From Ignavibacteriota bacterium (GTDB taxonomy: Bacteria; Bacteroidota; Ignavibacteria; Tepidaquicellales; OLB5), in contig RPQH01000001.1 in the NCBI GenBank assembly GCA_003820375.1, forward strand, positions 36,874-100,873: a DNA stretch of 64,000 nucleotides, in the 5' to 3' direction. Below the pieces are notes generated by a model. It did no database searches. It saw nothing but the letters and a program-made list of their open reading frames with translations, and was not told the origin of the DNA. Of the stretch, positions 18,374 through 39,415 are shown one piece after another. The stretch's first letter is position 1. Each line of letters begins with the position of its first letter. The position numbers and the translations under genes are program-made.

Positions 18374-21300
18374 ATGGAAAATAAATCAAAAAAGAAAATC
18401 TTAATATTTGATTATTATGAAAATATATTAAGATATTTAATGAAAAAATTAGGAGATATAAGGATACGATATGAGGTAATTTTTATAAAAATGAATAACG
18501 GAAAATCTGTATTAAAACAATTACAGGATCATGTACCCTCATTTGTTTTTTATCAGCCTTTTGATTTTTCTAGTATACTTGAACCCGATATGCAATTTCT
18601 TGAGAAATATATTCTTCCTTTTTTAAAAAATAAAAATTGTAATGTCTTATTTTACTATTATATTTATAATAAAAGTAATACGAGTGATATTGCGAATAAT
18701 GTTTATAATAAATTTCAATCTTTCATTCAGCAAAATGTTCATAAAAAAAACAATTCTAATATAAATTTTATTAATACGGCAGATTTCTACGTAAAGCCAA
18801 ATAAATCCAGCTCCAATTTAAAAACCGGGGAAAGTTATTTGGACTATCAACTTAAACGATTAGACTATCTCTATAAACCACTTAAAGAGAAGAATGATAA
18901 TGATAGACAAATAAATGATGAAGATTTGGTTGATGATATACACAATCCAATTAAAAATGATTATGCAGCTAATTTAGATAATGAATTACTTGATGAGTAT
19001 ACATCATTTATTTCAGATTTAATAACTGATTATATTTTACACTGTGATTATATAGATAATAAAGTAGAAGGATATTTCAATTTAGATAATTTAAAGTTTT
19101 TAAAATTTAAAAATCTTTATATTGATAAACTTAAAGACATACAAGTATTTAATGGTGATGAATATAATACTATAAAGTTATCTTTAGGGAAACTAACATT
19201 TTATGACCAAATGGGAAATCTATTGTTAGATATACCATATAAGAAATATTATAATAATTTAAATGCTTATGTAAAAGAACATAAATTATTAAAATATTTA
19301 TTTTCGGAAAATATAAATAGATATGAAAAAGGTAAAAATTATATATTTTATGAATTTTATTACTACAATGATGCAAATAAAATCACTTTAAAAATTAATA
19401 ATTGTTTTTATCGGATAAATTCTAAGACAAAAAATTTAGAAAATGCCGATGATATATTAAAAAAATGGCTGCGAATCTTATTTTCAGAAGTATATTACTT
19501 AAACTTCTATAACAAAGATCAAAATATATGGAATGAAATAAATATAAATGGAAATATAGTCAATAGCATTATTCAGCAAAGCAGTTCATTATATGGTGAA
19601 TCCCCATTTTATTTTGTTTTCTTTTTTGAAGAACTAGATATTGCCGGACAAAAAGGTACTGTAAACTATTGTTTATATAGTGATTCAGTACAAATTAATG
19701 CTCTACGTGGGAATCGTATTCCAATTAATGAAAATAATATCGAAGAATTTACAGATAGAATATATTCAGATATTCGTCCATTGATAATTTCAAGAGCTCA
19801 AGAATCGATATTCCCATTAATTAACAATCAAATCAGAAAATTAGCTGTTCAATCAGCAGTTTCATCAATCTTTGCTAGAAATTATTCTCACAACATTGGA
19901 GCTCACGTAGATAATAGAACTTATTATAATGATATAATTTTCAACTTAAATAATCTATATGGTGCAAAAGCAATAAATGATAACAGAAAACTAATTGATG
20001 TATGGATTCATTTAATGAAAGATTTAATGAAAAATTATTCAATTAAAAGGAATGAATTCCTTGCAGATTATCAGCACCCACCTAAAAATCTATTGCTCTA
20101 CGAAGATATTATACTTCCCTTTGTTGAAAATATGCTATTAATGAATAATATAGCATCAAGTGAAGATATAATGTATTTTAAAAATGGAAATTGCATTGAA
20201 AATAAGTTAAAAATAAAAGTAAATATAAACGGCAATGAGTTAAGTGCGCAATATCCTGATATGAGATGTATAGTAGATTGTGATGAATTGATAGAATATC
20301 CTGATCATTTTCCATATGTGTATTGTTATAAAGGGCTAAGTAATCCAAACAATTGCGAAATTGAAGATTTAACTAATATTTTAAAAACCAAAATCATACT
20401 GGGTAATGATATTGAAATAAGTATTACTAATGAACATGCTTTTTTCTCTATCTTAGAAAATATTATTAGAAACAGCTCAAAACATAATAAGAAAATATTA
20501 GAAGATGAATCAGAGTTACTAATCCAGATAAATGTTTATGATACAGATTTAGTAGATAATAAAAAGGATAATAATTTTTATCACGTAATTGTATATGATA
20601 ATATATCTGAAGCAAAATTATGTGATATATGGGAATTTAAAAGAACTATAGAAAGCTCAATAATTAATATTGAAACTGCCCAACTTGAACGAAAACAGCT
20701 TGGTATTAAAGATATGAAAATTAATGCTCATTTATTATGCTCCTCAGAAGAAATAAATGATGATATTTTAAAAAAATCTTTAGAAGTTGTTATTATAGAT
20801 AGATCAATCAAAGGTCCTGCAGAAATAATTTTTAATCCACTTCAATATCGAAATTATGATGAATTATTGAAAGATATAAAAGAACATTACTACGGAGATT
20901 TTGATATAGATAATTATAAATTTAGTTTTGGATACAAATTTAAACTACAGAAATCTAAAAAAATAATGTGGGTAGTTGGGAATGATTTAAAAATAGATGG
21001 AAAAGTAATAGACGAATTTCAGGAAAAAGGTGTTACCATTTTCTCCTATCAGGAAGATTTATCCAGTAACTTATCCAAAACAATAGCTTCGTATCAATTT
21101 ATTGTTTTCGAGAGAGAATATTTTAAGAATTTCAGCGATGAAGATTATATATCATTTGAAAGATGTTTAACTAAGCTGCCTTTCAGATTACTATTGAATA
21201 GTGAAGATGATGATTTTAATGAATATTTGAGTAAACTAATAAATTCAAGAAGAATACAACTGGTCAAAAATAAAATTCATTTTTTGGATTCTAACAATGA

Positions 21301-22132
21301 GCCTTATGATGTTTTTAGTATTTTAAAAGCATGTTGGATTAATTGGTTAGATAGATGGGATAATGGTAAAAGAATAAACTTAATCATCAGTGATAAAGAT
21401 AAGAGTAGTTATTTTAACCAGACTATCGGGAACGAGAAGTATAGTATTTTTCATGGAGATTATTCCAGCAAGGCTTTAAAACTAAATTATAATGAAAGAT
21501 ATGTAATATTTGACAGGCATGGTGATACACACTTTGATATTAAAAGTCAGTTGAAATGTTTCGAATTTGGTAATCTTTTTTATCAGACATATGAAAAAAA
21601 CAATGATGATTTTAATATTCTTAATCAATGTCAATTAAATGAGTTAAGTTATTATCAATTAATTGAAGCAGCATTGGTTAAAATTTTAATAGCTGATGAA
21701 AGATTATGTGCCTATATGAATGATAAACTTAATTCAATTAATACAAATTACAATATCATCAACGAGAACTATGAATTAAACTCACATGGGGCGGCTCTCA
21801 CTAATATTTTCTTTGTAAACTCATTAGAAAATAACATTATAAGCAAAACAAATGCTTCATATGCATGCTATATCAATAATGATAAAGTTACTTTTAATTT
21901 TTTAAATAAAGAAATCAAAACATATTTTGATTGTATTATAGTTCATAGAACATTTATTAATGAACATCTATTAAGAAATTTGAGAACAATAATTCCAAAT
22001 ATTATTATTACCTCCGGCGGGGGCTCAATTCAGAGAGATGAAAAGTATAAGTTTAAACCTTTAAGTCTTTTCCAGGGATTAACATCAAATCATTTCTCGA
22101 AAATAACATTAACAAAAAATGCTTTAACATAA
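18374..22132 (+). CDS. Giant (1252 aa) histidine-kinase-like GHKL ATPase protein with receiver-like flanks
   Basis: H-box-like AVSSIFARNYSHNIGAHV. N-box-like FFSILENIIRNSSKHNKK ~190 aa downstream. VIVYDNISEA and RKQLGIKDMKINAHLL at the G1/G2-box positions (degenerate). N-terminus KKILIFDYYENIL. C-terminus VKILIADERL...DCIIVHRTF...IIITSGGG...KFKPL resembles a (pseudo)receiver. Confidence 0.5.
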   Translation: MENKSKKKILIFDYYENILRYLMKKLGDIRIRYEVIFIKMNNGKSVLKQLQDHVPSFVFYQPFDFSSILEPDMQFLEKYILPFLKNKNCNVLFYYYIYNKSNTSDIANNVYNKFQSFIQQNVHKKNNSNINFINTADFYVKPNKSSSNLKTGESYLDYQLKRLDYLYKPLKEKNDNDRQINDEDLVDDIHNPIKNDYAANLDNELLDEYTSFISDLITDYILHCDYIDNKVEGYFNLDNLKFLKFKNLYIDKLKDIQVFNGDEYNTIKLSLGKLTFYDQMGNLLLDIPYKKYYNNLNAYVKEHKLLKYLFSENINRYEKGKNYIFYEFYYYNDANKITLKINNCFYRINSKTKNLENADDILKKWLRILFSEVYYLNFYNKDQNIWNEININGNIVNSIIQQSSSLYGESPFYFVFFFEELDIAGQKGTVNYCLYSDSVQINALRGNRIPINENNIEEFTDRIYSDIRPLIISRAQESIFPLINNQIRKLAVQSAVSSIFARNYSHNIGAHVDNRTYYNDIIFNLNNLYGAKAINDNRKLIDVWIHLMKDLMKNYSIKRNEFLADYQHPPKNLLLYEDIILPFVENMLLMNNIASSEDIMYFKNGNCIENKLKIKVNINGNELSAQYPDMRCIVDCDELIEYPDHFPYVYCYKGLSNPNNCEIEDLTNILKTKIILGNDIEISITNEHAFFSILENIIRNSSKHNKKILEDESELLIQINVYDTDLVDNKKDNNFYHVIVYDNISEAKLCDIWEFKRTIESSIINIETAQLERKQLGIKDMKINAHLLCSSEEINDDILKKSLEVVIIDRSIKGPAEIIFNPLQYRNYDELLKDIKEHYYGDFDIDNYKFSFGYKFKLQKSKKIMWVVGNDLKIDGKVIDEFQEKGVTIFSYQEDLSSNLSKTIASYQFIVFEREYFKNFSDEDYISFERCLTKLPFRLLLNSEDDDFNEYLSKLINSRRIQLVKNKIHFLDSNNEPYDVFSILKACWINWLDRWDNGKRINLIISDKDKSSYFNQTIGNEKYSIFHGDYSSKALKLNYNERYVIFDRHGDTHFDIKSQLKCFEFGNLFYQTYEKNNDDFNILNQCQLNELSYYQLIEAALVKILIADERLCAYMNDKLNSINTNYNIINENYELNSHGAALTNIFFVNSLENNIISKTNASYACYINNDKVTFNFLNKEIKTYFDCIIVHRTFINEHLLRNLRTIIPNIIITSGGGSIQRDEKYKFKPLSLFQGLTSNHFSKITLTKNALT

Positions 22133-22137
22133 TATAT

Positions 22138-22776
22138 ATGAGAAATATAATTTTCATTACAAGAGATTACGAAAATCAATACACTATTAAAGATGAATAT
22201 ACACACTTATGGAAAGCTGACGGTGAATCCAGTTTCTTTTCAATTGATTTAAACGATGATAAGATTTTAGTAATAAATGGACCAAAATTGTTTAAAACTT
22301 TGGATATTATGAAGAAAATTGAAACTTTATCTCACTATATTCCTAGGAATGAGGAAACAGGATTATTATATCATAGCCACACGCTTAATAATAGTCATTT
22401 AAATTTATCTTTGAAATTCTTAATGAAATTTGGTCATAGTGATGAATACTTTTATAATGGAATATATATACCTTTAGCTGAAAATAAAAACAATAAAGAA
22501 GTTGTTGTAAACTATTTTAATCAAATATGGGATATGTTTGACCCTGCATCTGAAATGGAATGTAAATTGAATGTACTATATAAATGTCTTGTTCCAGTGA
22601 AAGATACAAAGGAAATTGAGAGACTACCTGGCTGGAAAAAAATAAAAAATATTAAAATATCAAATAATGAAGAAGAAATATCAATAATTGATTACTTAAG
22701 AATCAATTTTACAAAAGATTCATTGGAATACGATGTTTTACTTACAAAACTTAGAGATATTGTTTTAAAGAATTAA
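22138..22776 (+). CDS. hypothetical protein (212 aa), 5 nt downstream of the kinase-like gene
   Basis: Tight operonic spacing. No convincing domain motif. Confidence 0.45.
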   Translation: MRNIIFITRDYENQYTIKDEYTHLWKADGESSFFSIDLNDDKILVINGPKLFKTLDIMKKIETLSHYIPRNEETGLLYHSHTLNNSHLNLSLKFLMKFGHSDEYFYNGIYIPLAENKNNKEVVVNYFNQIWDMFDPASEMECKLNVLYKCLVPVKDTKEIERLPGWKKIKNIKISNNEEEISIIDYLRINFTKDSLEYDVLLTKLRDIVLKN

Positions 22777-22900
22777 AATCTAACAAATGAGCTAAATTTA
22801 AAAAGTAATAAAATTGCTAGTTTTTGAACCCATTCGAAATTCATGAATAATAATATATATTAATAGAAAAGCTATTTTTAAATATTTAAATCAATCGAAA

Positions 22901-24889
22901 ATGAAAATATTAATAGTCGATGACAATGAAAATTTTGTGCGAAATGTTATTTATAAAATCAAAGAAACAGAATATTATAAAAATGCATCAAAGATATTTG
23001 ATGTAGATATTAATTATGAACATATTTATGTAAATACATTTTACGAGTTGAAGAACCGAATAACGTATGCAATTGAAAATGATAATACAATTATTCTAAT
23101 AAATGCGAATGTTATATTGAAAGATTATAGAAGACAGGATATGGCTGGAATTGAAATATTATATTATTTAAGGCTTGAACGAAGATTAAATTCTATTTTA
23201 ATATACTCTTTTGAGAGCATTAAAGATATAATTCGTAAATCCCCATACAATATTATTGCTTTAACAAAGTATACTTATCATTTAAGATTACCTATAAAAA
23301 CAGAAGAATTAAACAATTTATTCAATCAAATATCTAATGAACCTCAAATAAAATTATTTGAAGATTATAGACCATTTTTATTAATAGATACTATCAAACA
23401 AAAATTTGAAACACAAGATAAACATGAATTAGCCAATAAATTAGGTGCTTTAAATTGGGCAAATGCTTTTTTTGAAACTAAAGACATAGTAGAATTAGAA
23501 AGCATGAAAATACTGTTAAAATCAAAGCAGAAAAATATCCTTGAGAAAGATTTTCACAAATATATGTTACTCCTTAGTTTAACAAACAGTGAAAATCAAT
23601 ACATGTTAAATTATATAGGGGAAAGAGATAAGATTAGCAGTTTGTTTGAAAGCTTCAGTAAAGAGAGTAAGAGAAACTTTAAAATTTTATTTGTTGATGA
23701 CCATTGCGAAGACGGGGGATGGAGTTGCTTGTTAGAAAAAGTATTTGGAAAAAGCTGTGATTTAACATCTGTACCATCAGCTTTTGAAGCATACGAAAAA
23801 ATGGGATTAAAGGAAAATAAAAAACTTTTAATTGATTATGATCTCGTAATTCTTGACTTGAATTTGGATAAAGACCCATCGTCAACACCAATAAAACAAA
23901 GATCGGGCTATAAAGTATTAGAGTTTATTAGAGATTGTGATAAGAGTATACCGGTAATAATATTTACAGCATCTGAAAAAGCGAATAACATTTTGGAATT
24001 AGAGAATATTGGTATAAACGGATATTTATGCAAAACAATTTATGGTGACAAAACCCTTGATGAAGTTGAAAAACTTTATAATATTATTAATATAACCATT
24101 GAAAATATCTACATAAGAAATATTTGGAAATGTTTTATTGACTTTGAAAATAAAACGCGTTTCGTAAATAATAATTGGGAAGGTAACGAACTTGCATTTA
24201 ACTCGACTGTTAATATGTTATTCAAGTTATTTGAACTTTTGCTTTTGAAAACAAGGAATTTTAGAAAATCTGATAAAATATTTGACCAATTCATTATAAA
24301 CGCATTTATGATATTTGATAATATATTTTTAAAAGAATTATATGATATAGATGTTAGTACCATAGGGAGAAAAAAAGAAAAATTGTTTACAAAAGACGAT
24401 AGATATGGACCTTTCGGTAATTATATAAATTATATAAATGTTATTAGAAACAATATTGTACATAACAATTATGAGGCAAATATATATGATATGTTATTAG
24501 ATGCAGCTGTTTTAATGTATATACTTACATTAAATCCGGAATATTATTTTCGTGTTTTTCTTAATTATAAAGATGGACAAAATAGCTTGGATGGACTATA
24601 TAATAGCTCCCTCATTAAATCAATAAACCTATATCATAAGGAAAACGAAAAAGTAAAATTAAATACATCTTTAAGCAATGATAAGAGACGTATGTACATT
24701 AACTTCTTATGCGGATACCGAAATTCTATATACATTGATGTGAAAAATGAAAATTGGAAATATAAATGGATATTTGAGACAGAGTTATTTAGGGCAAATA
24801 ACCCTCTTAAATATATATGGCATGATTATATTATTAAAAAAATAACAAATTGCGAAATTGTGTTAGAACCTGTAAGTATTATGGAATAG
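22901..24889 (+). CDS. Tandem receiver protein (pseudo-REC + canonical REC) with a C-terminal HEPN-like domain
   Basis: REC1: MKILIVDDNENF, but the acceptor position reads IILINANV. REC2: FKILFVDDH, YDLVILDLNLD (acceptor Asp), IPVIIFTASEK (Thr), GINGYLCKT (Lys). The C-terminal helical region has INVIRNNIVHNNYE, an Rx4H HEPN-type motif. Confidence 0.6.
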   Translation: MKILIVDDNENFVRNVIYKIKETEYYKNASKIFDVDINYEHIYVNTFYELKNRITYAIENDNTIILINANVILKDYRRQDMAGIEILYYLRLERRLNSILIYSFESIKDIIRKSPYNIIALTKYTYHLRLPIKTEELNNLFNQISNEPQIKLFEDYRPFLLIDTIKQKFETQDKHELANKLGALNWANAFFETKDIVELESMKILLKSKQKNILEKDFHKYMLLLSLTNSENQYMLNYIGERDKISSLFESFSKESKRNFKILFVDDHCEDGGWSCLLEKVFGKSCDLTSVPSAFEAYEKMGLKENKKLLIDYDLVILDLNLDKDPSSTPIKQRSGYKVLEFIRDCDKSIPVIIFTASEKANNILELENIGINGYLCKTIYGDKTLDEVEKLYNIINITIENIYIRNIWKCFIDFENKTRFVNNNWEGNELAFNSTVNMLFKLFELLLLKTRNFRKSDKIFDQFIINAFMIFDNIFLKELYDIDVSTIGRKKEKLFTKDDRYGPFGNYINYINVIRNNIVHNNYEANIYDMLLDAAVLMYILTLNPEYYFRVFLNYKDGQNSLDGLYNSSLIKSINLYHKENEKVKLNTSLSNDKRRMYINFLCGYRNSIYIDVKNENWKYKWIFETELFRANNPLKYIWHDYIIKKITNCEIVLEPVSIME

Positions 24890-25100: not shown

Positions 25101-27295
25101 ATTTCAATCTGCATTCGTCTCATTCATTTTAAAGCCAACATCATTTTCACAAACTAGCGGCTCCACTAACAAGTTTCAATCGGCATTCGCCTCATTCATG
25201 TAAAAAGGCAGATAAGACCACCGAAATCACAACAAAGAGAAGAGTTTCAATCGGCTATCGCCTCATTCATGTAAAAAGTTCAGCTTCAAAGATTGCTATC
25301 ACTTCCAACAAGGAGTTTCAATCGGCCTAAGCCTCATTCATATTTTAACTAAAAATAAACCCGAAAACGTAAAGGTTCATACTTACGGTTTCAATCGGCT
25401 TTCGCCTCATTCATGTAAAAAGCGAAAAGTCATCGTATCAAAGGGGTCAACCAAAGAGTTTCAATCGGCTTTCGCCTCATTCATGTAAAAAGACTTTGCA
25501 ATGACAAATGTTCAGGGAAGCTTCTATAAAGGTTTCAATCGGCTTTCGCCTCATTCATGTAAAAAGTCACCATATTCGGTGAATTCTGGGGAAATCGTAA
25601 ATTGAGTTTCAATCGGCTTTCGCCTCATTCATGTAAAAAGCCTTCAAGACTTCATAAACGATAACACCACAGTTTCAATCGGCTTTCGCCTCATTCATGT
25701 AAAAAGAAAGAATGCTGTTATCTCAGTAATAAATCCTGAGTTTCAATCGGCTTTCGCCTCATTCATGTAAAAAGACAAAACGTGTAATTGCCAATAAGTC
25801 CAAATCCAGGTTTCAATCGGCTTTCGCCTCATTCATGTAAAAAGGATGACCCATGAAGAAAAGATGAAAGAAATTGAGTTTCAATCGGCTTTCGCCTCAT
25901 TCATGTAAAAAGATATATTCTGAAAAGGTACAACCTATCATTAAAGTAGAGTTTCAATCGGCTTTCGCCTCATTCATGTAAAAAGGTTATTTCGCAATCA
26001 ACATATATTTTAATTAAGCGTTTCAATCGGCTTTCGCCTCATTCATGTAAAAAGTATCATTACTTATAATTGAACCAACTCCAAATTTTCTTAGGTTTCA
26101 ATCGGCTATCGCCTCATTCATGTAAAAAGAAATAGATACTGCTTATGTGAAAACCGGATACGTTTCAATCGGCTTTCGCCTCATTCATGTAAAAAGAATG
26201 AAGCTCAGCCACCTATTGTGGTTGAAAAAGAGTTTCAATCGGCTTTCGCCTCATTCATGTAAAAAGAACAGTTTCAACAGCCCGTGACTTATAACTACGG
26301 AGTTTCAATCGGCTTTCGCCTCATTCATGTAAAAAGTCATTTGGACAAGGCTGGACCACAGAGTTCAATTGCGGTACGTTTCAATCGGCTTTCGCCTCAT
26401 TCATGTAAAAAGGGGAGAGCAAAAGAATCGCAATCTCACTCGAGCGTTTCAATCGGCTTTCGCCTCATTCATGTAAAAAGGGGACAGAACCTGAAAAGGT
26501 TGATTTCATTCACTGGAGTTTCAATCGGCTATCGCCTCATTCATGTAAAAAGGGTAGTAAAACTGTCAACGCAGTTTGCCACAAAGGGGCAGTTTCAATC
26601 GGCTTTCGCCTCATTCATGTAAAAAGTCTTACTGATTACGCTACAAAAACGTATGTTGATGAGTTTCAATCGGCTTTCGCCTCATTCATGTAAAAAGGAG
26701 AAAAGGACAAGATTGAACGGAAAATTCGGATAATGAGTTTCAATCGGCTTTCGCCTCATTCATGTAAAAAGCTTTGAACTGGTATAACTTCAAATACATT
26801 TCACAAGAGTTTCAATCGGCCTTAGCCTCATTCATGTAAAAAGATATCAATTCCGAAACCCAGAGAAACCGTTGAACAGGGGGTTTCAATCGGCCTTAGC
26901 CTCATTCATGTAAAAAGCTGCACATAAAGGAGTATTTAATGAAATCAATTACGTTTCAATCGGCTTTCGCCTCATTCATGTAAAAAGTCTGATTTCGAAT
27001 ACGGCATGGTTACAATACACAGCGTTTCAATCGGCTTTCGCCTCATTCATGTAAAAAGATACAGAGATTGCGAAACATTCGGTTCGTACGCGGAGTTTCA
27101 ATCGGCCTTAGCCTCATGCATGTTTTAACTACGACTTTGTCGTAAACTTAAGCACCGATGAATACCGAGTTTCAATCGGCTTTCGCCTCATTCATGTTTT
27201 AACAACAGACCTGGTGCAAGCGGTAAGATAAATGCGTTTCAATCGGCTTTTCCTTAGATTCCGTCTTCAGCGGGAAGCCTCATTCAGTTTTCTGA
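25101..27295 (-). CRISPR. CRISPR array 2: 31 repeats, directly abutting the 3' end of cas6-RT
   Basis: Plus-strand consensus is GTTTCAATCGGCTTTCGCCTCATTCATGTAAAAAG (35 nt), with spacers ~32-39 nt. The first unit at 25101 is degenerate, and a further probable relic repeat lies at 25031-25064. The last three units (27087, 27159, 27236) are variants. The unit at 27236-27295 carries a 25-nt loop insertion and ends 8 nt from the cas6-RT stop. Confidence 0.95.
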
Positions 27296-27302: not shown

Positions 27303-28832
27303 TTAATGTAAATTTCTGTTTTTATCAATGATATATAAATCTTCACCATCCTTTATCAGCTTGCAGTTACCTGGCAGCATTTCATCAAGCCGGTCAAGGT
27401 AAAGATTTATGAGCATAGGATTTAGCATTCTATTATATGGAATACCTTCATATGATGTGACCATATTTCCTTCTATACAAACCGGCTGTGTTATCCATAC
27501 CCTTATCAGGTCACTTACCGGATCACCACCGAATAATGTTTCTATTCGCTCGTATAATACATCCTTATTAATATAGCTGTAGAAAGAGTCTATATCAATT
27601 TTATTATATTCGTAACCATTTTTTTCTGCTTCATCAAGCATCTTTAATGCTCCCTCTTTCGAAAACCCATTCCTGTAAAAAAATGAGCTTTCTCCTATAT
27701 ACTTATTTATCACGGGTTCAGCAATTTGTTTTACTGCCAGCTGAAGTGTTCTTTCTTCAAGATTAAATTCAGTATGAATGTTAATTCCATCATGTTCTTC
27801 AGTTATAGTACCGGTAAACGGTTTAGCTTCATATTTGCCTGTAATTACTTCATTGATTAAATTATCTAAATTCTCATTAATTTTTGAATTAAATTTCTTT
27901 ACTTTTAGTTTATCGCTAATTGTTAAGCTATTATCCGATGCCAATACTTTATAGGCATTCAAAACATTTTCTTTTTTGACTGCTTTTGCAAGAAATGTTT
28001 CATAAGGAGATAACTCGCTAACATTGTACCCGGGAATATTTGTAACTGAATTTTTTCCAAATCCAAAGGATGTATTATTTCCATTATTAATAAACTGTCC
28101 GAACCATAAAAGCAATTTTAAGTCTGCTGAAAGCTCAGCAGTAAATTTTACTTTGCCTGAAACTCCTCCAAGTGTTTTGGATGTATATGGCATATCAAGC
28201 CACATAAGGTTAATATAATTAACTGCACAGTGAAGAAATTCTAAAGAAGGGTCACATTCATCAACTGAATTGCCGCATAATATTGATAAGCGTTTTACTC
28301 TATAATATAATAGTTTTAAAAATTGTCTTATATCAAAATATTCCCGGTCAAAATATTTATGCCCGGGTACAGGATATTCTCTTACCATTCTTAATGGTGA
28401 CCTAAGCCATAGCTCATATTCTTCTTCACCTCCATCTGTAAAATCCGGTATAATTTCCGTTTTAATTTCAGTTATATCTTCTAATGTAAATATTCCTTCT
28501 ATGCTGTTCTCTTTCGGTATATAAGAAGAAATTGATTTTAGCTTGCTTTCAAGATGGTCAATAAAATAATCACCTGCATTTATTGCGGTAATTCCGAAGT
28601 TATAGCAATCTCCTGATTGGTAAGATGTTCTTCCTGATTCTACCGCATTAATGATAATATCCTCACCAAGCTTGTTAACGCCTCTTTTCATGGTTTTACA
28701 AATAAGGTCATAGAGCTTTGAGCCATGGAAGAAAAGAAAATTTACATCATTGTTAAATTTAATTGTGACTTTAAATCTTTTATATGAAATAGATTTAATT
28801 AGTTCTTTAACAGGAAAATTGAAGTGATTCAT
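27303..28832 (-). CDS. cas6: Cas6 fused to a truncated/degenerate reverse-transcriptase domain (no Cas1 part)
   Basis: The N-terminal ~265 aa end in the Cas6 G-rich loop FINNGNNTSFGFGKNS. The C-terminal part has RT motifs in order: LEERTLQLAVKQIAEPV (1), FFYRNGFSKEGALKML (2), NKIDIDSFYSYINKDVL (3/A), GIPYNRMLNPMLINLYLDRLD (4/B). It then reads LIKDGEDLYII where YxDD (5/C) is expected, and the protein stops 8 aa later. Confidence 0.7.
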   Translation of the reverse strand: MNHFNFPVKELIKSISYKRFKVTIKFNNDVNFLFFHGSKLYDLICKTMKRGVNKLGEDIIINAVESGRTSYQSGDCYNFGITAINAGDYFIDHLESKLKSISSYIPKENSIEGIFTLEDITEIKTEIIPDFTDGGEEEYELWLRSPLRMVREYPVPGHKYFDREYFDIRQFLKLLYYRVKRLSILCGNSVDECDPSLEFLHCAVNYINLMWLDMPYTSKTLGGVSGKVKFTAELSADLKLLLWFGQFINNGNNTSFGFGKNSVTNIPGYNVSELSPYETFLAKAVKKENVLNAYKVLASDNSLTISDKLKVKKFNSKINENLDNLINEVITGKYEAKPFTGTITEEHDGINIHTEFNLEERTLQLAVKQIAEPVINKYIGESSFFYRNGFSKEGALKMLDEAEKNGYEYNKIDIDSFYSYINKDVLYERIETLFGGDPVSDLIRVWITQPVCIEGNMVTSYEGIPYNRMLNPMLINLYLDRLDEMLPGNCKLIKDGEDLYIIDKNRNLH

Positions 28833-29033
28833 TTTGACAGTTATTGATTTTGAAATAATAACTTTGCTGGTTCAGATATGTTGCAGCTAAAAATTTCCTT
28901 CAAAAGCAGAAACGAAAAAGAAATTAGTTCAAGCAACTTCACAAATATAATCAAAGAAGATAAAAGTTTGTAACCGTTTTATTTTTCAATAATAATAAAA
29001 CCACAGATGAGAGGAAAAAGGGAGTATATAATT

Positions 29034-29182
29034 ATCGGTTTACGCTTACCTAAATTTAGAATTGTCGATTGTCAATTGCGAATTAAGAATTAATAAATAA
29101 TCAGCCGTTGCATAAGAATAAATAGAAAAACATAAACACACCATATCACACACCCCTTCTTCGGAGGGGATGGGGGAGGCTG
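29034..29182 (-). promoter_or_regulatory. Type-1 inter-array leader-like element, copy a (relic repeat + AATTNNN heptads + GC hairpin)
   Basis: The relic repeat is atcggtttacgc at 29034. Six heptads span 29053-29094. The conserved block aagaataaatagaaaaa..acaccatatcacacacccc is present. The hairpin CCCCTT-cttcg-GAGGGG lies at 29153-29169. It is homologous to 30011-30146. Confidence 0.5.
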
Positions 29183-29773
29183 CTCCTAATCGGCCTTAGC
29201 CTCATTCATATTTTAACATTATGAACGCTGGTTTTGCCAAAGTTTATGAGGAGTTTCAATCGGCTTTCGCCTCATTCATGTAAAAAGTCCAATACGGAGT
29301 ATCTGAATTAGCTCAAGAGGTTTCAATCGGCTTTCGCCTCATTCATGTAAAAAGTCCAATACGGAGTATCTGAATTAGCTCAAGAGGTTTCAATCGGCTT
29401 TCGCCTCATTCATGTAAAAAGAAAACACCAAGTTGAATAACAAACCCACATTACTGAGTTTCAATCGGCTTTCGCCTCATTCATGTAAAAAGACCTTCCA
29501 TGAAGATTATGGTTATATTCTCAGGAGTTTCAATCGGCTTTCGCCTCATTCATGTAAAAAGAATTATTGGACTTTTGTTGTTTATAGCAATTCGTTTCAA
29601 TCGGCTTTCGCCTCATTCATATTTTAACGCGGAAAATACGATGAGCATCCTACAGGCAATGAGGGAGTTTCAATCGGCCTTAGCCTCATTCATATCTTAA
29701 CGACCTTGTCGCAGGTATCACAGTTTCAGGATGGCAGGAGTTTCAATCGGCCTTAGCCTCATTTTATACAAAT
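29183..29773 (-). CRISPR. CRISPR array 3a: 9 repeats (mixed repeat families), includes a tandemly duplicated spacer
   Basis: Repeat starts: 29183 (5' end degenerate), 29253, 29320, 29387, 29458, 29527, 29594, 29667, 29739. The last diverges after ..cctcatt. Confidence 0.9.
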
Positions 29774-29841
29774 ATAATAAATTGAAAAACAACTTTACAT
29801 CACAGTAATCGTTTTCCCGCTAAAAGCGGGATCTTCGCTTT
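29774..29841 (-). promoter_or_regulatory. Type-2 inter-array leader-like element, copy a (AT-rich block + CCCGC hairpin)
   Basis: Sequence ..aatataataaattgaaaaacaactttacatcacagtaatcgttttCCCGCTaaaAGCGGGatcttcg.. Hairpin at 29816-29830. Homologous to 31403-31469. Confidence 0.5.
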
Positions 29842-30010
29842 GCTTCGACAATCGGCTTTCGCCTCATTCATGTAAAAGTCACCCATCAATTGCTTTCTAC
29901 ACCTTCAGGAAATCAGTTTCAATCGGCTTTCGCCTCATTCATGTAAAAAGCGGGCTGCTCTGTGGCAAAGATTCAATGTGGTCGCCGTTTCAATCGGTTT
30001 TCGCCTCATT
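29842..30010 (-). CRISPR. CRISPR array 3b: 3 repeats
   Basis: Repeats at 29842 (degenerate, gcttcGACaatcgg), 29916 and 29987. The last diverges after ..cctcatt. Confidence 0.85.
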
Positions 30011-30146
30011 TTCTCAATTGCGAATTTCGAATTGTGAATCTCGAATTGAGTATAAATAAAATAACGAGTCGGAGAAAAAGAATAAATAGAAAAATATAAA
30101 TACACCATATCACACACCCCTCCTTCGGAGGGGAAGGGGGAGGCTG
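30011..30146 (-). promoter_or_regulatory. Type-1 inter-array leader-like element, copy b
   Basis: The five heptads are aattgcg|aatttcg|aattgtg|aatctcg|aattgag at 30016-30050. The conserved block is present. The hairpin CCCCTC-cttcg-GAGGGG lies at 30117-30133. Confidence 0.5.
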
Positions 30147-31402
30147 TTCCTAATCGGCCTTAGCCTCATTCATGTAAAAAGTGCTGGCTGTTTCGATATA
30201 GCTAGTAATAATAGTGTTTCAATCGGCTTTCGCCTCATTCATGTAAAAAGAATGAGCAGTGACCAGGGGAATACCTTCTTTTCGGTGTTTCAATCGGCTT
30301 TCGCCTCATTAATGGTCAGATCTTAGTTACAAGTTTTACAGGTTTCAATCGGCTTTCGCCTCATTCATGTAAAAAGTTTGAGCACACAGGCACAGGAACT
30401 TCAAAATCTGAGCGTTTCAATCGACTTTCGCCTCATTCATGTAAAAAGCATCATCAGCCATCATATTCGTTAAATGACTTTTTCACAGAGTTTCAATCGG
30501 CTTTAGCCTCATTCATGTAAAAGGGTTTACCCTTAAACGCCAATGTCAATGTGTCAGAGTTTCAATCGGCTTTCGCCTCATTCATATTTTAACATGGTTA
30601 CGGGTGCGACAGCGGATAACTTTGCGTTTCAATCGGCCTTAGCCTCATTCATATTTTAACTGACGATTCATCCTTCATCAAGGATGACTTCTGTTTCAAT
30701 CGGCCTTTCCTTAGATCCCGTCTTCAGCGGGAAGCCTCATTCATATTTTAACGTGGAAGAAAAACAGACACCACCTCCAGTTACTTTGTTTCAATCGGCC
30801 TTAGCCTCATTCATATTTTAACTGATTCAATAAACTTTATGTCTCTTGGCAAACCGACTATTGGAGTTTCAATCGGCCTTAGCCTCATTCATATTTTAAT
30901 TAATGTTCCAATTCCAGTTTGCTTCGATATTAATGAGTTTCAATCGGCTTTCGCCTCATTCATGTAAAAAGAAGAAATTGCTAAAAAGTTGGACCTGGCC
31001 CGGTGTTTCAATCGGCTTTCGCCTCATTCATGTAAAAAGTTTGACAAGAAGTTTGCCAAAGGTACTGAGATAGATAAGTTTCAATCGGCTTTCGCCTCAT
31101 TCATGTTTTAACTGAATATGTAGTGATTACCAATACTGCCACCGGCGCAGTTTCAATCGGAGTTAGCCTCATTCATGTTTTAACGCAAAGAGACAGCCTG
31201 TGGTGGATATTTGATTCAAAGAGGTTTCAATCGGCCTTAACCTCATTCATATTTTAACTTTGGGCCGAAGTTGTAGGGTTACCATAGGATCAATGTTTCA
31301 ATCAGCCTTAGCCTCATTCATATTTTAACATAAACTTTGACACACGTAAGCCAAGCGAAAAGCAGATGTTTCAATCGGCCTTAGCCTCAATCTATGCAAA
31401 TA
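30147..31402 (-). CRISPR. CRISPR array 3c: 18 repeats (both repeat families, chimeras, one loop-insertion repeat, one truncated repeat)
   Basis: Repeat starts: 30147, 30216, 30287 (truncated after cctcatt), 30342, 30414, 30490, 30559, 30636, 30703 (60-nt insertion variant), 30788, 30866, 30937, 31005, 31078, 31150, 31224, 31295, 31368. Confidence 0.9.
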
Positions 31403-31507
31403 TAACAAATTGAAAAACAATTTTACATCACAGTAATCATTTTCCCGCCAAGGGCGGGATCTCTGCTTCGCTACGACAATCGGCTTTCGCCTCATTCAAT
31501 CAAAAAT
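31403..31507 (-). repeat. Type-2 leader-like element copy b plus an orphan degenerate repeat (31470-31507)
   Basis: Sequence aatataacaaattgaaaaacaattttacatcacagtaatcattttCCCGCCaagGGCGGGatctctg, then gctacGACaatcggctttcgcctcattcaat. Hairpin at 31444-31458. Confidence 0.6.
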
Positions 31508-34775: not shown

Positions 34776-36062
34776 GTTTTCAATCGGCTTTCGCCTCATT
34801 CATGTAAAAAGTACAGTAGATTATCATATATAACGGTATGACGTTTCAATCGGCTTTTCTTTAGATCCCGTTTTTAGCGGGACGCCTCATTCATGTAAAA
34901 AGCACTTATAATGATATGCTGACAACTGTGAACTTTTAGTTTCAATCGGCTTTCGCCTCATTCATGTAAAAAGGAGATATGCCCTGGAGTAACACCGAGC
35001 TTACCGAGTTTCAATCGGCTTTCGCCTCATTCATTTAAAAAGTTATCAAGTAGAAATAGTTTCTATACTTGGCAAAGAAGAGTTTCAATCGGCTTTCGCC
35101 TCATTCATATAAAAAGGCAGTCGCAAAGCCAGGAGATGAAGCAGGAGCAGAAGAATGAGTTTCAATCGGCTTTCGCCTCAATCATGTAAAAAGACACAAA
35201 GACAATAAATTCAGGATAAAAGACCCCAAGTTTCAATCGGCTTTTCCTTAGATCCCGTCTTTAGCGGGACACCTCATTCATGTAAAAAGGAAGAAAATAT
35301 TGAACCAAGCTCTTCATTGCCTGAGTTTCAATCGGCTTTCGCCTCATTCATTTAAAAAGGACAAACTTCGTCCAGTTCGACATTCCAGAGGGAGTTTCAA
35401 TCGGCTTTCGCCTCATTCATGTAAAAAGTTCGTGTATGAAAAAACATTTAACAGGCCGGTCAACATGTTTCAATCGGCTTTCGCCTCATTCATGTAAAAA
35501 GTATAGGCGTATATTATACGAGCACACTAGACGGAGTTTCAATCGGCTTTCGCCTCATTCATGTAAAAAGGAAGAACGAAGCTCAGCCACCTATTGTGAT
35601 TGAGAGTTTCAATCGGCTTTCGCCTCATTCATGTAAAAAGAGACGAGTTCCACCATTCCGTTACATATAAATGGTTTCAATCGGCTTTCGCCTCATTCAT
35701 GTAAAAAGGTAAATAGCGAATCTACAACTAGCGCAAAGAGGTTTCAATCGGCTTTCGCCTCATTCATGTAAAAAGATGTTCCATTCAGTGAGAGATGATT
35801 TGCGCGAAATTGTTTCAATCGGCTTTCGCCTCATTCATGTAAAAAGTAACTGCAATCCATCCAAATATGATTTGCAAGAGTTTCAATCGGCTTTCGCCTC
35901 ATTCATGTAAAAAGTTATTTGTAATCGTGAATTCGTATTCTCAAAAAATCAGCGGTTTCAATCGGCTTTCGCCTCATTCATGTAAAAAGGAAGTCTTGGT
36001 TCTGACTCAGATTGGAATCTTAAGGGAGTTTCAATCGGCTTTCGCCTCATTCATGTAAAAAG
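34776..36062 (-). CRISPR. CRISPR array 4: 18 repeats; units nearest 36062 are identical, variants cluster at the low-coordinate end
   Basis: Repeat starts: 34776, 34843 (insertion variant), 34939, 35008, 35082, 35159, 35230 (insertion variant), 35325, 35394, 35467, 35536, 35606, 35674, 35741, 35812, 35880, 35955, 36028. Consensus is GTTTCAATCGGCTTTCGCCTCATTCATGTAAAAAG. Confidence 0.95.
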
Positions 36063-36131: not shown

Positions 36132-36271
36132 CTCTTTTTCACCTCAAAATTAGTAATAAATTCTTAATATGTCAACTATTTACCTCTAAGTTATAATAAA
36201 ATAAGGCATCTGTCAGAACAGGCACTAAAAAAAAGTTAAGTCTCAATAAAATAAAGTACTTAACCAAAAAC
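36132..36271. repeat. Copy B of the ~140-bp direct repeat (partner at 7732-7870), between array 4 and the first integrase
   Basis: See copy A. This copy contains the array 4 promoter boxes. Confidence 0.8.
36147..36175 (-). promoter_or_regulatory. Putative leader promoter of array 4 (TTGACA-N17-TAATTT, extended TAATTTTG)
   Basis: Plus-strand tgtcaa at 36170-36175 and aaatta at 36147-36152 with a 17-nt spacer. It lies ~85 nt from the first repeat, the same layout as the array 1 leader. Confidence 0.4.
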
Positions 36272-36347: not shown

Positions 36348-37607
36348 TTACAAGGTACTATACTTAATATTATTTATCTTCTCTCTCTCAATCTCAATAT
36401 CCGGATGCAAGTAACCGGATGTAGTTGCTATATCCGCATGACCTGCCATTTTTTGTGCGTTATCGAGAGATATTCCGTTGTGCAGCCAGTTTGTAAAACA
36501 TGTATGTCTGGTTGAATGAAAAACATATTGCCTCTTTGGAAAGCCAAGTTTCCTGATAACACTATTAAGGTAATGGCTTGCAGATTGCTTGTTATAAAGT
36601 TTGCCAAAGATGTAATTGTCTAAATTAAAGTTCTTCGAATTTACCATTTCATTATATAGAGCAAAAATAACTTCAAATACCTCTCGTGTTAGTATTACTT
36701 CACGGTTTTCATAGTCCTTAAGTGTAAAGCCAGGTTTATTTTCAACTCTTATGTATCCTTTTATTTCAAATTCATATTTTTGCCATTCTTCGTTTGTAGA
36801 TGATATATAAATTTTATATATGTCAAAAATCGTATGTCTATTAGAAAAGACAAAATCATTAAATTGAAGATGGAGTATTTCATCGAGTCTCATACCCGTA
36901 TTGAATGCTATAATTGCCACTGCTTTCATTTTAGGTCTTTTGATAGCATTTATGATTTTAGACGCATCACTGTTATTGAATATTCTTCTTGGCTTTTGTG
37001 GAATTGGCAGAGGTTCCAAATTATCGCAAGGATTATTAACCAGATAGTCATAAAATACTGCTTGCCGGAAAATATGATGTAAGTTACGCAAGTCTATATT
37101 TACAGAGACAGGGGAGATTGGCTCATTTGCTTGTCTATTTGATGACTCTTTAACATTTCGTCTATTCATGGTCTTACGCATGTTCTTAAATTTATTTATA
37201 TCATCAAAGCAGTACATGTTAATAGGTTTATTTCCTATGAACTCAAGAAAGTAGTTAATAGTAAGTCTGTAGTTGTTTCTGGTACCTTTACTATGGCTGT
37301 TTTGCATTTCCTTTATTATCAGCGATGCAAATTCTTTGAAATTTAATATGCATTTTCTATTATTTAATGAATCTGTTTTTACTTTAAAGGAATTCATGTA
37401 TTCCCGCAGCTTAGTTTTCGAATTTATCCAGGCAGGCGGCATATGATACTTTCTCACCTTTAGTAGATTTCCATTTAAATCAGTTTTCTCTTCGTACCAA
37501 TAGAAGCACATCTTTTTGCCAACAACAATATTATTGCCAAAGTCATCTTTTAAATATTTTCCATTATGACCTTTTTTATAAAGATTTCTTTTATATGTAT
37601 TAAACAT
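36348..37607 (-). CDS. Tyrosine recombinase/integrase (phage-integrase family)
   Basis: C-terminal catalytic block NTGMRLDEIL ... FHSTRHTCFTNWL ... AGHADIATTSGYLH (R...HxxR...Y). Confidence 0.85.
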   Translation of the reverse strand: MFNTYKRNLYKKGHNGKYLKDDFGNNIVVGKKMCFYWYEEKTDLNGNLLKVRKYHMPPAWINSKTKLREYMNSFKVKTDSLNNRKCILNFKEFASLIIKEMQNSHSKGTRNNYRLTINYFLEFIGNKPINMYCFDDINKFKNMRKTMNRRNVKESSNRQANEPISPVSVNIDLRNLHHIFRQAVFYDYLVNNPCDNLEPLPIPQKPRRIFNNSDASKIINAIKRPKMKAVAIIAFNTGMRLDEILHLQFNDFVFSNRHTIFDIYKIYISSTNEEWQKYEFEIKGYIRVENKPGFTLKDYENREVILTREVFEVIFALYNEMVNSKNFNLDNYIFGKLYNKQSASHYLNSVIRKLGFPKRQYVFHSTRHTCFTNWLHNGISLDNAQKMAGHADIATTSGYLHPDIEIEREKINNIKYSTL

Positions 37608-37764
37608 TAATTATTAATTGCTTGGTAAAAGTTAAAAGAAATTATTTTGCAATATTCCAAATCATATTGGAATAAATGTTTATTTAAGAATGATAATATA
37701 TTTAGTTTAAAGTTTACTTGAATATCATATTAAGATACTTTTATAGTATGATAAAATGTAAATC

Positions 37765-39024
37765 TTAAAGACTACTATATCTAATCTTATTAAACTTTTC
37801 TCTTTCAGCTTCAAAATCCGGATGTGCATAACCTACTGTTGTTAGCGGTGAAGCATGTCCTGCGATTGCTTGTACTGTATCTAAGGGAATGCCTGCATGC
37901 AGCATATTAGTCAATGCTGTATGTCTTGTACTGTGAAATACATATCTTCCGGCAGGAAACCCAAGTGAACGAATAACTTTATTTAGGTATTGGGATGCAG
38001 TATTTTTGTTCAATAAAGAGCCAAGTATGTAACCATTAAGGTTAAATACATTTGCATCAGCCATCTTTATATACTCTTCAAAAACAATTTCAAATACTTC
38101 CCAGATTAAAATGACGTTACGATTGTCGTGATCTTTTAGCGTGAAATTGGGCTTGTTTTCAATCTTTATATGGTCTAAAATACTCATGGCAAATTCCTTA
38201 AATTCATCAGGTGTACATGCTTTGAATCGTATGTAAATTGTTTGCCAGTGATAATCATCTTTGAATACAAAATCGTCAAACTGTAAATGCAGGATTTCAT
38301 TTAACCTCATTCCTGTATTTAATGCAATAATTGTAGCAATTTTCAATTTTGGTCTTTTTATAGCATTTAAAATGAGAGGAATATCTCTATTAGAAAAATT
38401 ACGTCTTGGTTTTTGAGCCACAATTTCATGAGTAACTTTGCTGCAGGGATTCTTCAGCATGTAACCTGAATTTACAGCTTCTTCAAATATATGATGCAAA
38501 TCCCTGAGCTCTATATTGACCGTGACAGGGGAGATAGGCTTGTAAGGTACATCCTTATTTTTAATGCATAAATTCGACATGACCTTTCTTAAATTTTTAA
38601 AATTAACAATGTCATCATATGTGTACATTTTGATCGGTTTATTACCTACCAGACTGATGAAATAACCGCAAGTACGTTGATATATGCTTTTTGTGCTTTT
38701 ACTGTAACCGTTTTCCATTCCCTTAATCAGGATATCTGTATATGATTTGAAATCCATTACTTCTGCGTTTTTAGGAATTGATGAGTCCGGGATAACATAG
38801 GTTTTAAGGTATTTATTTAAATCAGCTTTTGTTTTAACCCAGTCTGGCGGCATATGTGTTTTTTTCTCTTTTTTTAATTTACCGTCAGCAAACTTTTCTT
38901 CATACCAGTAAATTGAAAGCTGCTTTCTTAAAACAATATTTTTTCCATTGGCTTCTTTTAAATATTTTCCATCAGTTCCTTTTTTGAATATTTTTCTTAT
39001 GTAAGTATTAAATACTTTTTGCAT
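37765..39024 (-). CDS. Tyrosine recombinase/integrase, paralogue of the adjacent gene
   Basis: The catalytic block is NTGMRLNEIL ... FHSTRHTALTNML ... AGHASPLTTVGYAH. It is colinear with 36348-37607 over its full length. Confidence 0.85.
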   Translation of the reverse strand: MQKVFNTYIRKIFKKGTDGKYLKEANGKNIVLRKQLSIYWYEEKFADGKLKKEKKTHMPPDWVKTKADLNKYLKTYVIPDSSIPKNAEVMDFKSYTDILIKGMENGYSKSTKSIYQRTCGYFISLVGNKPIKMYTYDDIVNFKNLRKVMSNLCIKNKDVPYKPISPVTVNIELRDLHHIFEEAVNSGYMLKNPCSKVTHEIVAQKPRRNFSNRDIPLILNAIKRPKLKIATIIALNTGMRLNEILHLQFDDFVFKDDYHWQTIYIRFKACTPDEFKEFAMSILDHIKIENKPNFTLKDHDNRNVILIWEVFEIVFEEYIKMADANVFNLNGYILGSLLNKNTASQYLNKVIRSLGFPAGRYVFHSTRHTALTNMLHAGIPLDTVQAIAGHASPLTTVGYAHPDFEAEREKFNKIRYSSL

Positions 39025-39274
39025 AAAAGTTACTCCTCTTGGTAACCGGCTTTATAAAGCCATATACCATTATAATGTTTGAAAAAGTTGGGTGACACCC
39101 AGGGTGACACCTGAGACCTAATAAATTGTTAAATATATACTTGCATAATGCAAGTATAAAAATATTTGAGTTTGTAAATTTGTTATTCTATACAAATATA
39201 TCATATTTTTAATATAAATGCATAATGCAACAAATATTAATTTTCCGTTTTCGTCGTCTGAAAAGCCGTGTGTC

Positions 39275-39299
39275 GTCGGTTCAATTCCGGCCCTGTCCA
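39275..39299 (+). pseudogene. tRNA (or tmRNA) 3' fragment: T-arm + acceptor 3' strand only
   Basis: Reads GTCGG-TTCAATT-CCGGC-CCTGTCC-A. No matching 5' acceptor (GGACAGG), D-arm or anticodon arm could be found upstream on this strand. Confidence 0.5.
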
Positions 39300-39384
39300 C
39301 AACAAACACTATGGAAATGACATTTTTCTGTGGTGTTTTTTTATTTCCTGCCAAGAGGTTATACCATGGGTCATATCGGGAGGG

Positions 39385-39415
39385 CACGTTGCTTTACCAA
39401 CTGAGCTACCTGTCG
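39385..39415 (-). pseudogene. tRNA 5' fragment: acceptor 5' strand + D-arm only
   Basis: The minus strand reads cGACAGG-TA-GCTC-AGTTGGTA-AAGC-A.. and then cannot be folded into an anticodon or T arm. Confidence 0.45.

Follow-up and report, generated by a model that had tools for sequence, protein, structure and literature searches.

The described systems closest to the DNA region treated here are the leaders and trailers of CRISPR arrays, together with composite arrays that arise through repeat-mediated recombination. The region lies at 29.0-31.5 kb in a stretch of 64,000 nucleotides (nt) from an uncultured Ignavibacteriota bacterium (GenBank contig RPQH01000001.1, positions 36,874 to 100,873; this whole stretch is called the window in the following). 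It is a composite CRISPR array on the minus strand, which consists of three head-to-tail sub-arrays with 17, 2, and 8 spacers. Four copies of one family of junction modules separate and flank these sub-arrays (five, if a decayed copy at array 1 is included); they are of two types, T1 and T2, with copies T1a, T1b, T2a, and T2b. As in known leaders, trailers, and composite arrays, an AT-rich region with a promoter-like box precedes a first repeat, the terminal repeat is degenerate, and the repeat variants form mosaics and some units are duplicated, as is typical when arrays recombine. Unlike in these, however, the modules fuse a trailer with a restart, they recur, their first repeat is eroded, and they are unrelated to the intact leaders of the same locus. 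They are placed here among the composite arrays, as a case in which trailer/restart junctions lie within the array.

Three further systems resemble the modules in part. In the survey of stand-alone repeat-like elements and mini-arrays by Shmakov et al. (2023), the type III cases were regarded as degraded repeats (10.1101/2023.03.03.530964). The modules share with such elements the pairs of degenerate repeats near cas genes: T1a is situated upstream of cas6-RT (RT, reverse transcriptase), T2b downstream of csx3, and the trailer of array 1 upstream of card1. However, the repeats of a module are 73 or ~125 nt apart and not 20-60 nt, a spacer-like sequence matching a promoter was not found, and the modules are duplicated and more structured than stand-alone type III repeats (conserved hairpin, box, AT block, and heptads). 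Concerning the heptads, omega/ParB of plasmid pSM19035, a ribbon-helix-helix (RHH) protein, needs at least four contiguous heptads for cooperative binding, with one dimer per heptad (PMC9499535). T1 likewise has at least four contiguous 7-bp units (six in T1a, five in T1b), and in both systems orientation and flanking bases are variable but the phase is not; the T1 motif, however, is AATTNNN and not WATCACW, and the context is a CRISPR array and not plasmid partition or copy control. Inspection by eye, without a domain-library scan, of the open reading frames (ORFs) of 35-110 aa outside large genes and arrays yielded no plausible RHH gene in the island. Finally, CARF regulators of the Csa3a type (Sulfolobus) bind both the promoters of adaptation genes and CRISPR leaders. 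The present locus is similar in that a putative heptad operator is found upstream of both cas6-RT and a sub-array, and in that the island contains a CARF-AAA+ gene (2985-4535); its regulator, however, is of the sigma54-type AAA+ kind instead of the winged helix-turn-helix Csa3, neither a sigma-54 promoter (in the window) nor a palindromic site was found, and the link is purely positional.

The composite array is the third of four arrays, which share one 35-nt repeat family and are all co-oriented:

17487-17799: array 1
25101-27295: array 2
29184-31507: array 3
34777-36062: array 4

They are surrounded by a type III-D locus with Csx10, Csx19, Cas10, a TIGR03986 RAMP, a Card1-like gene, Csx3-AAA, and Cas6-RT. 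On the plus strand, the repeat reads GTTTCAATCGG..., and its reverse complement ends with ...GCCGATTGAAAC, an 8-nt handle as is usual for the Cas6 type; on the minus strand, the repeat ends in ...GATTGAAAC, with AUUGAAAC as the handle. Degenerate repeats are located at the low-coordinate array ends (25101, 17487, and 34777, as well as the left end of L001, a related array from another metagenome), whereas the high-coordinate end of array 4 shows perfect, homogeneous repeats and a normal leader. The same polarity is found in an Ignavibacteriaceae locus with cas6, RT-cas1, cas2, leader, and array (L004), in which the repeats end with ATTGAAAC in gene direction. Because of the handle, the degenerate ends, the array 4 leader, and the polarity of L004, the strand of the CRISPR RNA (crRNA) is evidently the minus strand, with leaders at higher coordinates. 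Two repeat types exist, A (...GGCGAAAGCC..., 5' end CTTTTTAC) and B (...GGCTAAGGCC..., 5' end GTTAAAAT), of which the arrays are mosaics; hybrid repeats are found exactly at the B-to-A transitions, as expected from crossovers within repeats.

The features of array 3 are the following (the first repeats and the boxes precede their sub-array on the minus strand, such that each sub-array begins at its higher coordinate):

29034-29051, minus strand: remnant first repeat of T1a, strongly degenerate (12/18 match), beyond which there is only unique sequence and cas6-RT
29053-29094, no strand assigned: T1a heptads, six AATTNNN units, five of them with exact AATT
29095-29152, minus strand: T1a AT-rich block, ~95% identical to T1b from about 29116; TTTTTC(A/T)ATTTATT and GTGAT in common with T2
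29153-29169, minus strand: T1a GC hairpin, CCCCTTCTTCGGAGGGG; CCCCTTC-TTC-GGAGGGG in the plus-strand reading
29184-29217, minus strand: T1a terminal repeat of sub-array 3a, 3' end degenerate (GATTAGGAGC in place of GATTGAAAC)
29218-29739, minus strand: sub-array 3a, 8 spacers with one exact duplicate unit; repeats change from B via hybrid to A along the crRNA strand
29740-29768, minus strand: T2a first repeat of sub-array 3a, 5'-eroded, repeat identity from AATGAGGC
29769-29776, minus strand: T2a TATATTTG box, a Bacteroidota/Chlorobi-type -7 element, adjoining the eroded first repeat on its 5' side
29815-29831, minus strand: T2a hairpin, TCCCGC-TAAAA-GCGGGA; terminator score on the plus strand only
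29843-29879, minus strand: T2a terminal repeat, which closes sub-array 3b and carries a 3-nt insertion (crRNA-strand reading GATT-GTC-GAAGC)
29880-29986, minus strand: sub-array 3b, 2 spacers and one full repeat
29987-30012, minus strand: T1b first repeat of sub-array 3b, 5'-eroded
30016-30050, no strand assigned: T1b heptads, five AATTNNN units, four with exact AATT; 14-nt period x2.7 in Tandem Repeats Finder (TRF)
30051-30116, minus strand: T1b AT-rich block
30117-30133, minus strand: T1b GC hairpin, CCCCTCC-TTC-GGAGGGG
30148-30181, minus strand: T1b terminal repeat of sub-array 3c, degenerate 3' end
30182-31367, minus strand: sub-array 3c, 17 spacers, mosaic A/B repeats
31368-31396, minus strand: T2b first repeat of sub-array 3c, 5'-eroded
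31397-31404, minus strand: T2b TATATTTG box
31443-31459, minus strand: T2b hairpin, TCCCGCC-AAG-GGCGGGA; one pair T-A to C-G relative to T2a, both sides changed
31471-31507, minus strand: T2b degenerate repeat of the GAC type, an orphan without array upstream; csx3-AAA ends 33 nt off, at 31541

Sub-array 3c is thus led by T2b, 3b by T1b, and 3a by T2a, and array 3 ends in T1a, downstream of which there is the remnant of a decayed repeat, then unique sequence over 200 nt, and then cas6-RT. On the minus strand, each module starts with a terminal repeat of full length, continues with a GC hairpin and an AT-rich block, and closes with a first repeat eroded at its 5' end, so that trailer and restart are fused in one cassette of ~140-200 nt. 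The last 5-8 nt of the terminal repeats are corrupted: those of T2 and of array 1 read GATT-GTC-GAAGC, GATT-GTC-GTAGC, or GATT-GTC-GAAAC, which is the GAC insertion described in the original prediction, and those of T1 read GATTAGGARC. In the first repeats, identity begins only at (A)ATGAGGC, with ~6-11 nt of the 5' end lost, but the GGC-N4-GCC stem (the Cas6 stem-loop) and the GAUUGAAAC tail are retained. In sub-array 3c, a hairpin of 25 nt is inserted in one of the repeats (30693-30752), and the spacer of one unit is short, with 20 nt (30287-30341). A third, decayed T2-like module is present at 17400-17521; it comprises the terminal GAC repeat of array 1 (17487-17521) and a trailer aligning with T2, and is situated upstream of the Card1-like gene as well as of the type III-D operon. 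The original prediction, made from the sequence without database searches, had described two elements with two copies each, a GAC repeat in array 1, and head-to-tail sub-arrays; all of these are present at the places named there, including the six T1a heptads exactly as listed. Each module joins the degenerate end of one sub-array to the start of the next.

The copies of each module are close duplicates (identities of 88% along 144 nt and of 90% along 115 nt, with BLAST E-values of 1e-19 to 1e-25; core sequences GGGGTGTGTGATATGGTGT for T1 and GATTACTGTGATGTAAA for T2). T1a and T1b share 94.8% identity over 96 columns comprising terminal repeat, hairpin, and AT block, as against 63% in the linker and 71% in the heptad segment; T2a and T2b are 88-91% identical. 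No further copies of either type were found in the 64 kb (BLAST) or in ~19 kb of extra flank. When T1 and T2 are aligned jointly, GTGAT and TTTTTC(A/T)ATTT(A/G)TT blocks are common to all four copies, which also have the same architecture of flanking repeats; T1 equals T2 plus a segment of ~58 nt (linker and heptads) at the place where T2 has ATATTTG(T/C)ATA. To judge from this alignment, T1 and T2 are paralogues. Their hairpins occupy the same position with different sequences; pairing holds in 96% of the cells, and in 3 of the 7 pairs both partners have changed, a statistic which includes only four sequences and assumes positional homology. No Rfam family was matched at the gathering threshold (whole window) or at E<=1 (28.85-31.6 kb). 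A 35-aa ORF in T1 exists in copy a; a 1-nt indel shifts the frame between the copies, for which reason coding potential of T1, including its heptad segment, was rejected. Viral contigs contained no matches to the T1 core or to the repeat, and two 17-mer matches to T2 that look like chance, of which the one inspected (L005) is without extended similarity.

As repeat-rich regions are easily misassembled, a chimeric join of repeat-sharing arrays would be conceivable. However, a contig of another sample, assembled independently, is collinear along 20,930 bp, a length which takes in all sub-arrays and in which 2 mismatches but no indel occur (99.99% identity); the module structure is for this reason not a misassembly, and an artefact retains a practically negligible probability.

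The explanation favoured here, to which we assign a probability of about one half, is that the modules are trailer/restart junction cassettes in a decayed type III-D locus, with T2 as restart, the hairpins as stop, and the T1 heptads as a protein site. They would have been multiplied by repeat-mediated recombination or segmental duplication in a locus whose adaptation module has decayed; the order T2-array-T1-array-T2-array-T1 would fit one tandem duplication of a ~1.6-kb unit, and the decayed third T2 at the array 1 trailer is counted as evidence of recombination. T2 would restart transcription of the crRNA precursor (pre-crRNA) at the first repeat, such that Cas6 could still free a normal first crRNA, and the hairpins would insulate against or stop upstream transcripts. 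The T1 heptads may represent a multi-site protein-binding array that had its original place in the control region upstream of cas6-RT(-cas1), as copy a, and of which a duplicate, copy b, entered the array. The structural and evolutionary part of this reading is well supported; its functional part we infer.

Concerning a promoter in T2, differential RNA sequencing (dRNA-seq) in Chlorobaculum, a sister lineage, has revealed an RpoD motif of the Bacteroidetes type, TTG-N17-23-TAnnTTTG (10.1101/172254). In both T2 copies, TATATTTG is retained on the crRNA strand, where it adjoins the eroded first repeat on the 5' side, and this box is identical in the two although 6 of 66 neighbouring positions differ. 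Comparable boxes are found in other leaders, i.e., TTG-N20-TAATTTTG ~83 nt upstream of repeat 1 in the array 4 leader and the canonical TTG-N21-TATATTTG ~85 nt upstream in the leader of L004. A start 6-8 nt downstream of the T2 box would yield a pre-crRNA beginning in the repeat, with the Cas6 site included. T2 is therefore a plausible internal promoter, whereas T1, in which no TAnnTTTG box is present, is rated as not being one. Concerning termination, all four modules have GC stems of 6-7 bp with conserved pairing, followed on the minus strand by UGUGUGAUAUGG in T1 and AAAACGAUU in T2, so that a role as stop or insulator is possible.

The heptads are in excess of chance. With a loose criterion (at most one mismatch per heptad), heptad runs are common by chance and occur in most random sequences; with a strict one (at least 4/5 in-phase exact AATT), only the two T1 copies are found, and 8 of 200 Markov-1 random windows reach the criterion. 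Outside the window, L001 (repeat GTCTCAATCGGCTTTCGCCTCATTCATTTTAAAAT), whose trailer is collinear with T1, has three to four units ~55 nt past its terminal repeat, with AATT spaced by 6, 7, and 7 nt and then a degenerate repeat remnant; three in-phase AATT in such a flank have a probability of about 7e-4. Among the 14 heptads of T1a, T1b, and L001, AATT is almost invariant, whereas positions 5-7 vary (consensus AATTGNG). From the occurrence at the equivalent place in L001 it follows that the heptad block is conserved in position and phase in a second lineage, and the non-conservation in related leaders that would have spoken against the original prediction was not encountered. An RNA structure was discarded as a role of the heptads because only those of T1b, and not those of T1a, form a hairpin on folding.

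The protein-binding array proposed for the heptads by the original prediction accordingly appears reasonable in view of L001, but its candidates fare differently. The 7-bp phase is out of register with the helical repeat of 10.5 bp, which argues against intrinsic bending, and the IHF consensus WATCAANNNNTTR, which has 7 matches in the window, has none in 28.9-31.6 kb (the consensus is that of E. coli and may not apply to this phylum); an IHF-like factor or DNA bending thus finds no support, and an integrase-anchoring site is disfavoured in a locus without Cas1/Cas2. A TATATTTG box at 28942-28949 is situated 109 nt upstream of the cas6-RT ATG and about 105-150 nt downstream of the T1a heptads. 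This arrangement suggests that the heptads are most likely a multi-site protein-binding element of the cas6-RT control region, which was carried into the array with copy b. It also bears on the proposal that a leader promoter in T1a drives cas6-RT: the position of T1a upstream of the gene is correct, but T1 has no box and cas6-RT possesses its own TATATTTG. By its location only, the CARF-AAA+ protein (2985-4535) is a candidate heptad binder. A wider version, in which T1 and T2 are restart cassettes portable by recombination through flanking repeat homology, able to enter any array with repeats of this family and to re-initiate the synthesis of pre-crRNA within long arrays, and the heptads an operator for a locus regulator, e.g., the CARF-AAA+ protein, that couples the expression of cas6-RT(-cas1) and of sub-arrays to cyclic-oligoadenylate signalling, is considered unlikely.

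Several observations weigh against the favoured explanation. The only TTG of T2 lies 13 nt upstream of its box instead of the 17-23 nt of the consensus; TAnnTTTG is not enriched over the window (93 observed and 107 expected) and only ~2.8-fold upstream of genes (8 boxes in 4 kb); and there is no recognisable promoter beside the T1b heptads. In a terminator scan (criterion: 5 T in 8 nt), neither hairpin reaches this T density on the minus strand, the T1 tail being a G-interrupted U/G-rich stretch, the sole call is T2a on the plus strand, and fold energies are not better than those of shuffles, with unremarkable z-scores. Of the original view that each element is terminator plus promoter, the conserved hairpins and the T2 box thus remain, whereas the TTG spacing and the minus-strand U-tract do not agree with it and T1 as a promoter falls away. 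For the heptads, there is a single distant comparator, L001, which is without the GC hairpin, and no candidate heptad-binding protein was identified other than by location. Finally, the sub-arrays have no spacers in common, so that any duplication must be older than the spacers now present, unless the sub-arrays derive from different arrays.

Part of this evidence would suit neutral scars, i.e., non-functional debris of array fusions and deletions, with the heptads as a decaying 7/14-bp microsatellite without a role. The unremarkable folding, the heptad segment as the least conserved part of T1 (71% vs. 95%), further heptad microsatellites at 43129 in the window and at 15307 in L008 (an unrelated locus), the loss of Cas1 and Cas2 together with the truncated RT, and the judgement of the above survey that type III stand-alone repeats are degraded and non-functional (10.1101/2023.03.03.530964) are all consistent with it. 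It is difficult to reconcile, however, with AATT being retained (56 of 58 positions) while the intervening 3 nt drift, with heptads at the same place in L001, with hairpin pairing maintained via double changes, and with a T2 box that is unchanged amid diverging neighbours. We consider neutral scars a doubtful but not a far-fetched explanation.

A different function would be that of active secondary leaders, in which T1 and T2 direct integration and the heptads, at the junction of leader and repeat, dock an integrase or a host factor. In other systems, this junction is the place of leader-anchoring and IHF sites, and the heptads do abut the first repeat; furthermore, each sub-array has unique spacers, and T2b, T2a, and T1b are each located directly upstream of a sub-array on the minus strand, as a leader would be. 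The junctions themselves, however, are not intact: the first repeats are 5'-eroded and the next repeats are of full length, from which it follows that new repeats were not copied from the first repeat. The leaders of arrays 1 and 4, which have the same repeat, form a separate family with intact first repeats and without heptads, and BLAST finds no match between them and T1 or T2. Neither cas1 nor cas2 was found among called or scanned genes over ~83 kb (the window and ~9 kb on each side), and the arrays are identical in two samples. The modules are accordingly regarded as probably not integration leaders; a role in spacer acquisition, as implied in the original prediction, is disfavoured, and active secondary leaders are quite unlikely.

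The decay of the adaptation module is apparent in cas6-RT itself, and the favoured junction cassettes have to be seen in this context:

27303-28832, minus strand: cas6-RT, 509 aa, truncated just after RT motif 5 and without a Cas1 domain

Against an RT-Cas1 profile, Cas6-RT covers positions 21-233 of 617 only, and in comparison with the RT-Cas1 of Ignavibacteriaceae the alignment stops at RT motif 5, where FADD is replaced by DGED and the ORF ends two residues later. Cas6-RT is thus, as far as these alignments indicate, a truncated Cas6-RT-Cas1. Array 2 starts 12 nt past its stop codon with a 5'-degenerate, insertion-bearing first repeat and has no leader of its own, for which reason co-transcription of cas6-RT and array 2, as originally proposed, remains plausible. 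The truncated RT, the missing cas1 and cas2, the mosaic repeats, and the exact duplication of one repeat-spacer unit in sub-array 3a point to a locus that probably no longer acquires spacers and has been reshaped by repeat-mediated recombination. No orthologous locus is recognized, because the closest non-self homologues are only 33% (Cas6-RT), 52% (Csx3), and 41% (Card1) identical. In the search for orthologous leaders, GTDB genomes gave neither Cas6-RT relatives nor a copy of the repeat, in JGI metagenomes the repeat gave only the one related array L001, and the flanks of two Csx3 loci examined contained no array.

Alternatively, the modules might be small mobile elements, either hairpin elements or similar to miniature inverted-repeat transposable elements (MITEs), which insert site-specifically in CRISPR repeats. 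Overlapping parts of the repeat (positions 1-24 and 6-35) flank each module and mimic a target duplication, and a stem ATCCCG-N7-CGGGA occurs five times in the window (0.03 expected), exclusively inside arrays; two of these stems are in T2, and 25-nt insertions in the loops of four repeats belong to the same kind. However, no terminal inverted repeats and no associated transposase were found, there are no copies outside arrays in the window and ~19 kb of flanks, and the flanking half-repeats belong to different variants (A vs. B), which speaks against a fresh duplication. Insertion of mobile elements is thus a very unlikely origin. Even less can be said for regulatory RNA modules, from which Cas6 would cut free non-crRNAs of ~105 nt (T2) or ~165 nt (T1) similar to CreA/CreR or to small CRISPR-associated RNAs (scaRNAs): although the GGC-N4-GCC stem is present in both flanking repeats and repeat-derived regulators are widespread in other CRISPR types (10.1101/2023.03.03.530964), the inter-repeat distances of 73 and ~125 nt are far above the 20-60 nt of spacers, only AT-rich chance matches were found when complementarity to cas promoters and elsewhere was considered, the upstream handle is corrupted, and neither an Rfam match nor a frame-conserved small ORF exists. 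We regard this possibility as highly improbable.

The trailer/restart junctions constitute a real but fairly ordinary outcome of repeat-driven rearrangement in a locus without spacer-acquisition genes, the most unusual items being the AATT heptad block, which is conserved, and the hairpin module, which is confined to arrays, and no long-standing question depends on them. If the modules work as proposed, a long array unable to grow would be kept expressed through internal restart points, trailer-plus-promoter cassettes could spread among arrays via repeat homology alone, and the phased AATT heptads would provide a CRISPR junction with a site, of an unusual kind, that binds a regulator or has an architectural role. 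For array-calling and leader-prediction tools, caution is advisable: one 'array' can equal several transcription units, internal boundaries can show as degenerate repeats, and orientation should be set before a leader is named.

Concerning the surroundings of the arrays, the array 4 leader (36132-36270) is copied at 7732-7869, just past the last gene of the type III-D operon, with 90.6% identity over 139 nt and without an array; the array 1 leader (17800-18050) is a third, more diverged copy of this family. The two close leader copies bracket the whole CRISPR-Cas island of ~28 kb, beside two tyrosine integrase genes at 36348-39024. Near the latter, at 39250-39430, tRNA- or tmRNA-like fragments are found (T-arm-like GGTTCAATTCCGG; GGTAGCTCAGTTGG on the minus strand), in which no gene is called by ARAGORN and for which the only Rfam match, to a permuted tmRNA, is weak (E=0.9); they may be the remnant of an integration site. 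The CARF (Cas_NE0113)-sigma54-type AAA+ regulator at 2985-4535 is followed by a TraG/VirD4-like coupling protein, the pair spanning 2985-7163, and upstream of the window there are genes for ArdC-N, HNH, an Eco57I-type methyltransferase, and an SNF2/PLD helicase (L010, 1-10000). These neighbours suggest that the CRISPR island sits in a region similar to defence or conjugative elements. Between arrays 1 and 2, at 18374-24889 on the plus strand, three co-directional ORFs of 1252, 212, and 662 aa are without Pfam or PADLOC match except for a receiver (REC) domain in the third, and may form an uncharacterised accessory module.

Two spacers, 26197-26231 in array 2 and 35571-35605 in array 4, overlap on the same target (25 of 26 nt identical, offset 4 nt), which indicates that one protospacer region was sampled more than once or else that a duplication took place long ago. 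Insertions of ~25 nt are situated in the stem loop of four otherwise normal repeats (27236-27295, which is the first repeat of array 2, 30693-30752, 34843-34902, and 35229-35288); they form (G)ATCCCG-N7-CGGGA(A), with three copies and one variant, in an orientation opposite to that in T2. Concerning other short repeats, a perfect heptad microsatellite, AACTTCT x ~4.7, lies at 43129-43165 just past the 3' end of a Na/sulfate symporter gene, its sequence being unrelated to the AATT heptads. In L008, a type III-A locus whose Csx3 is 50% identical, five perfect in-phase AATT heptads (AATTTTA AATTACA x2.5) are found at 15307-15341, after a GC hairpin and before a small ORF, between accessory genes and cas1; they may be a coincidence or a parallel to T1. 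The leader of L004 (3563-3830) contains three copies, one of them inverted, of ATCCAACCGTTTTC, a leader repeat of another kind than the heptads.

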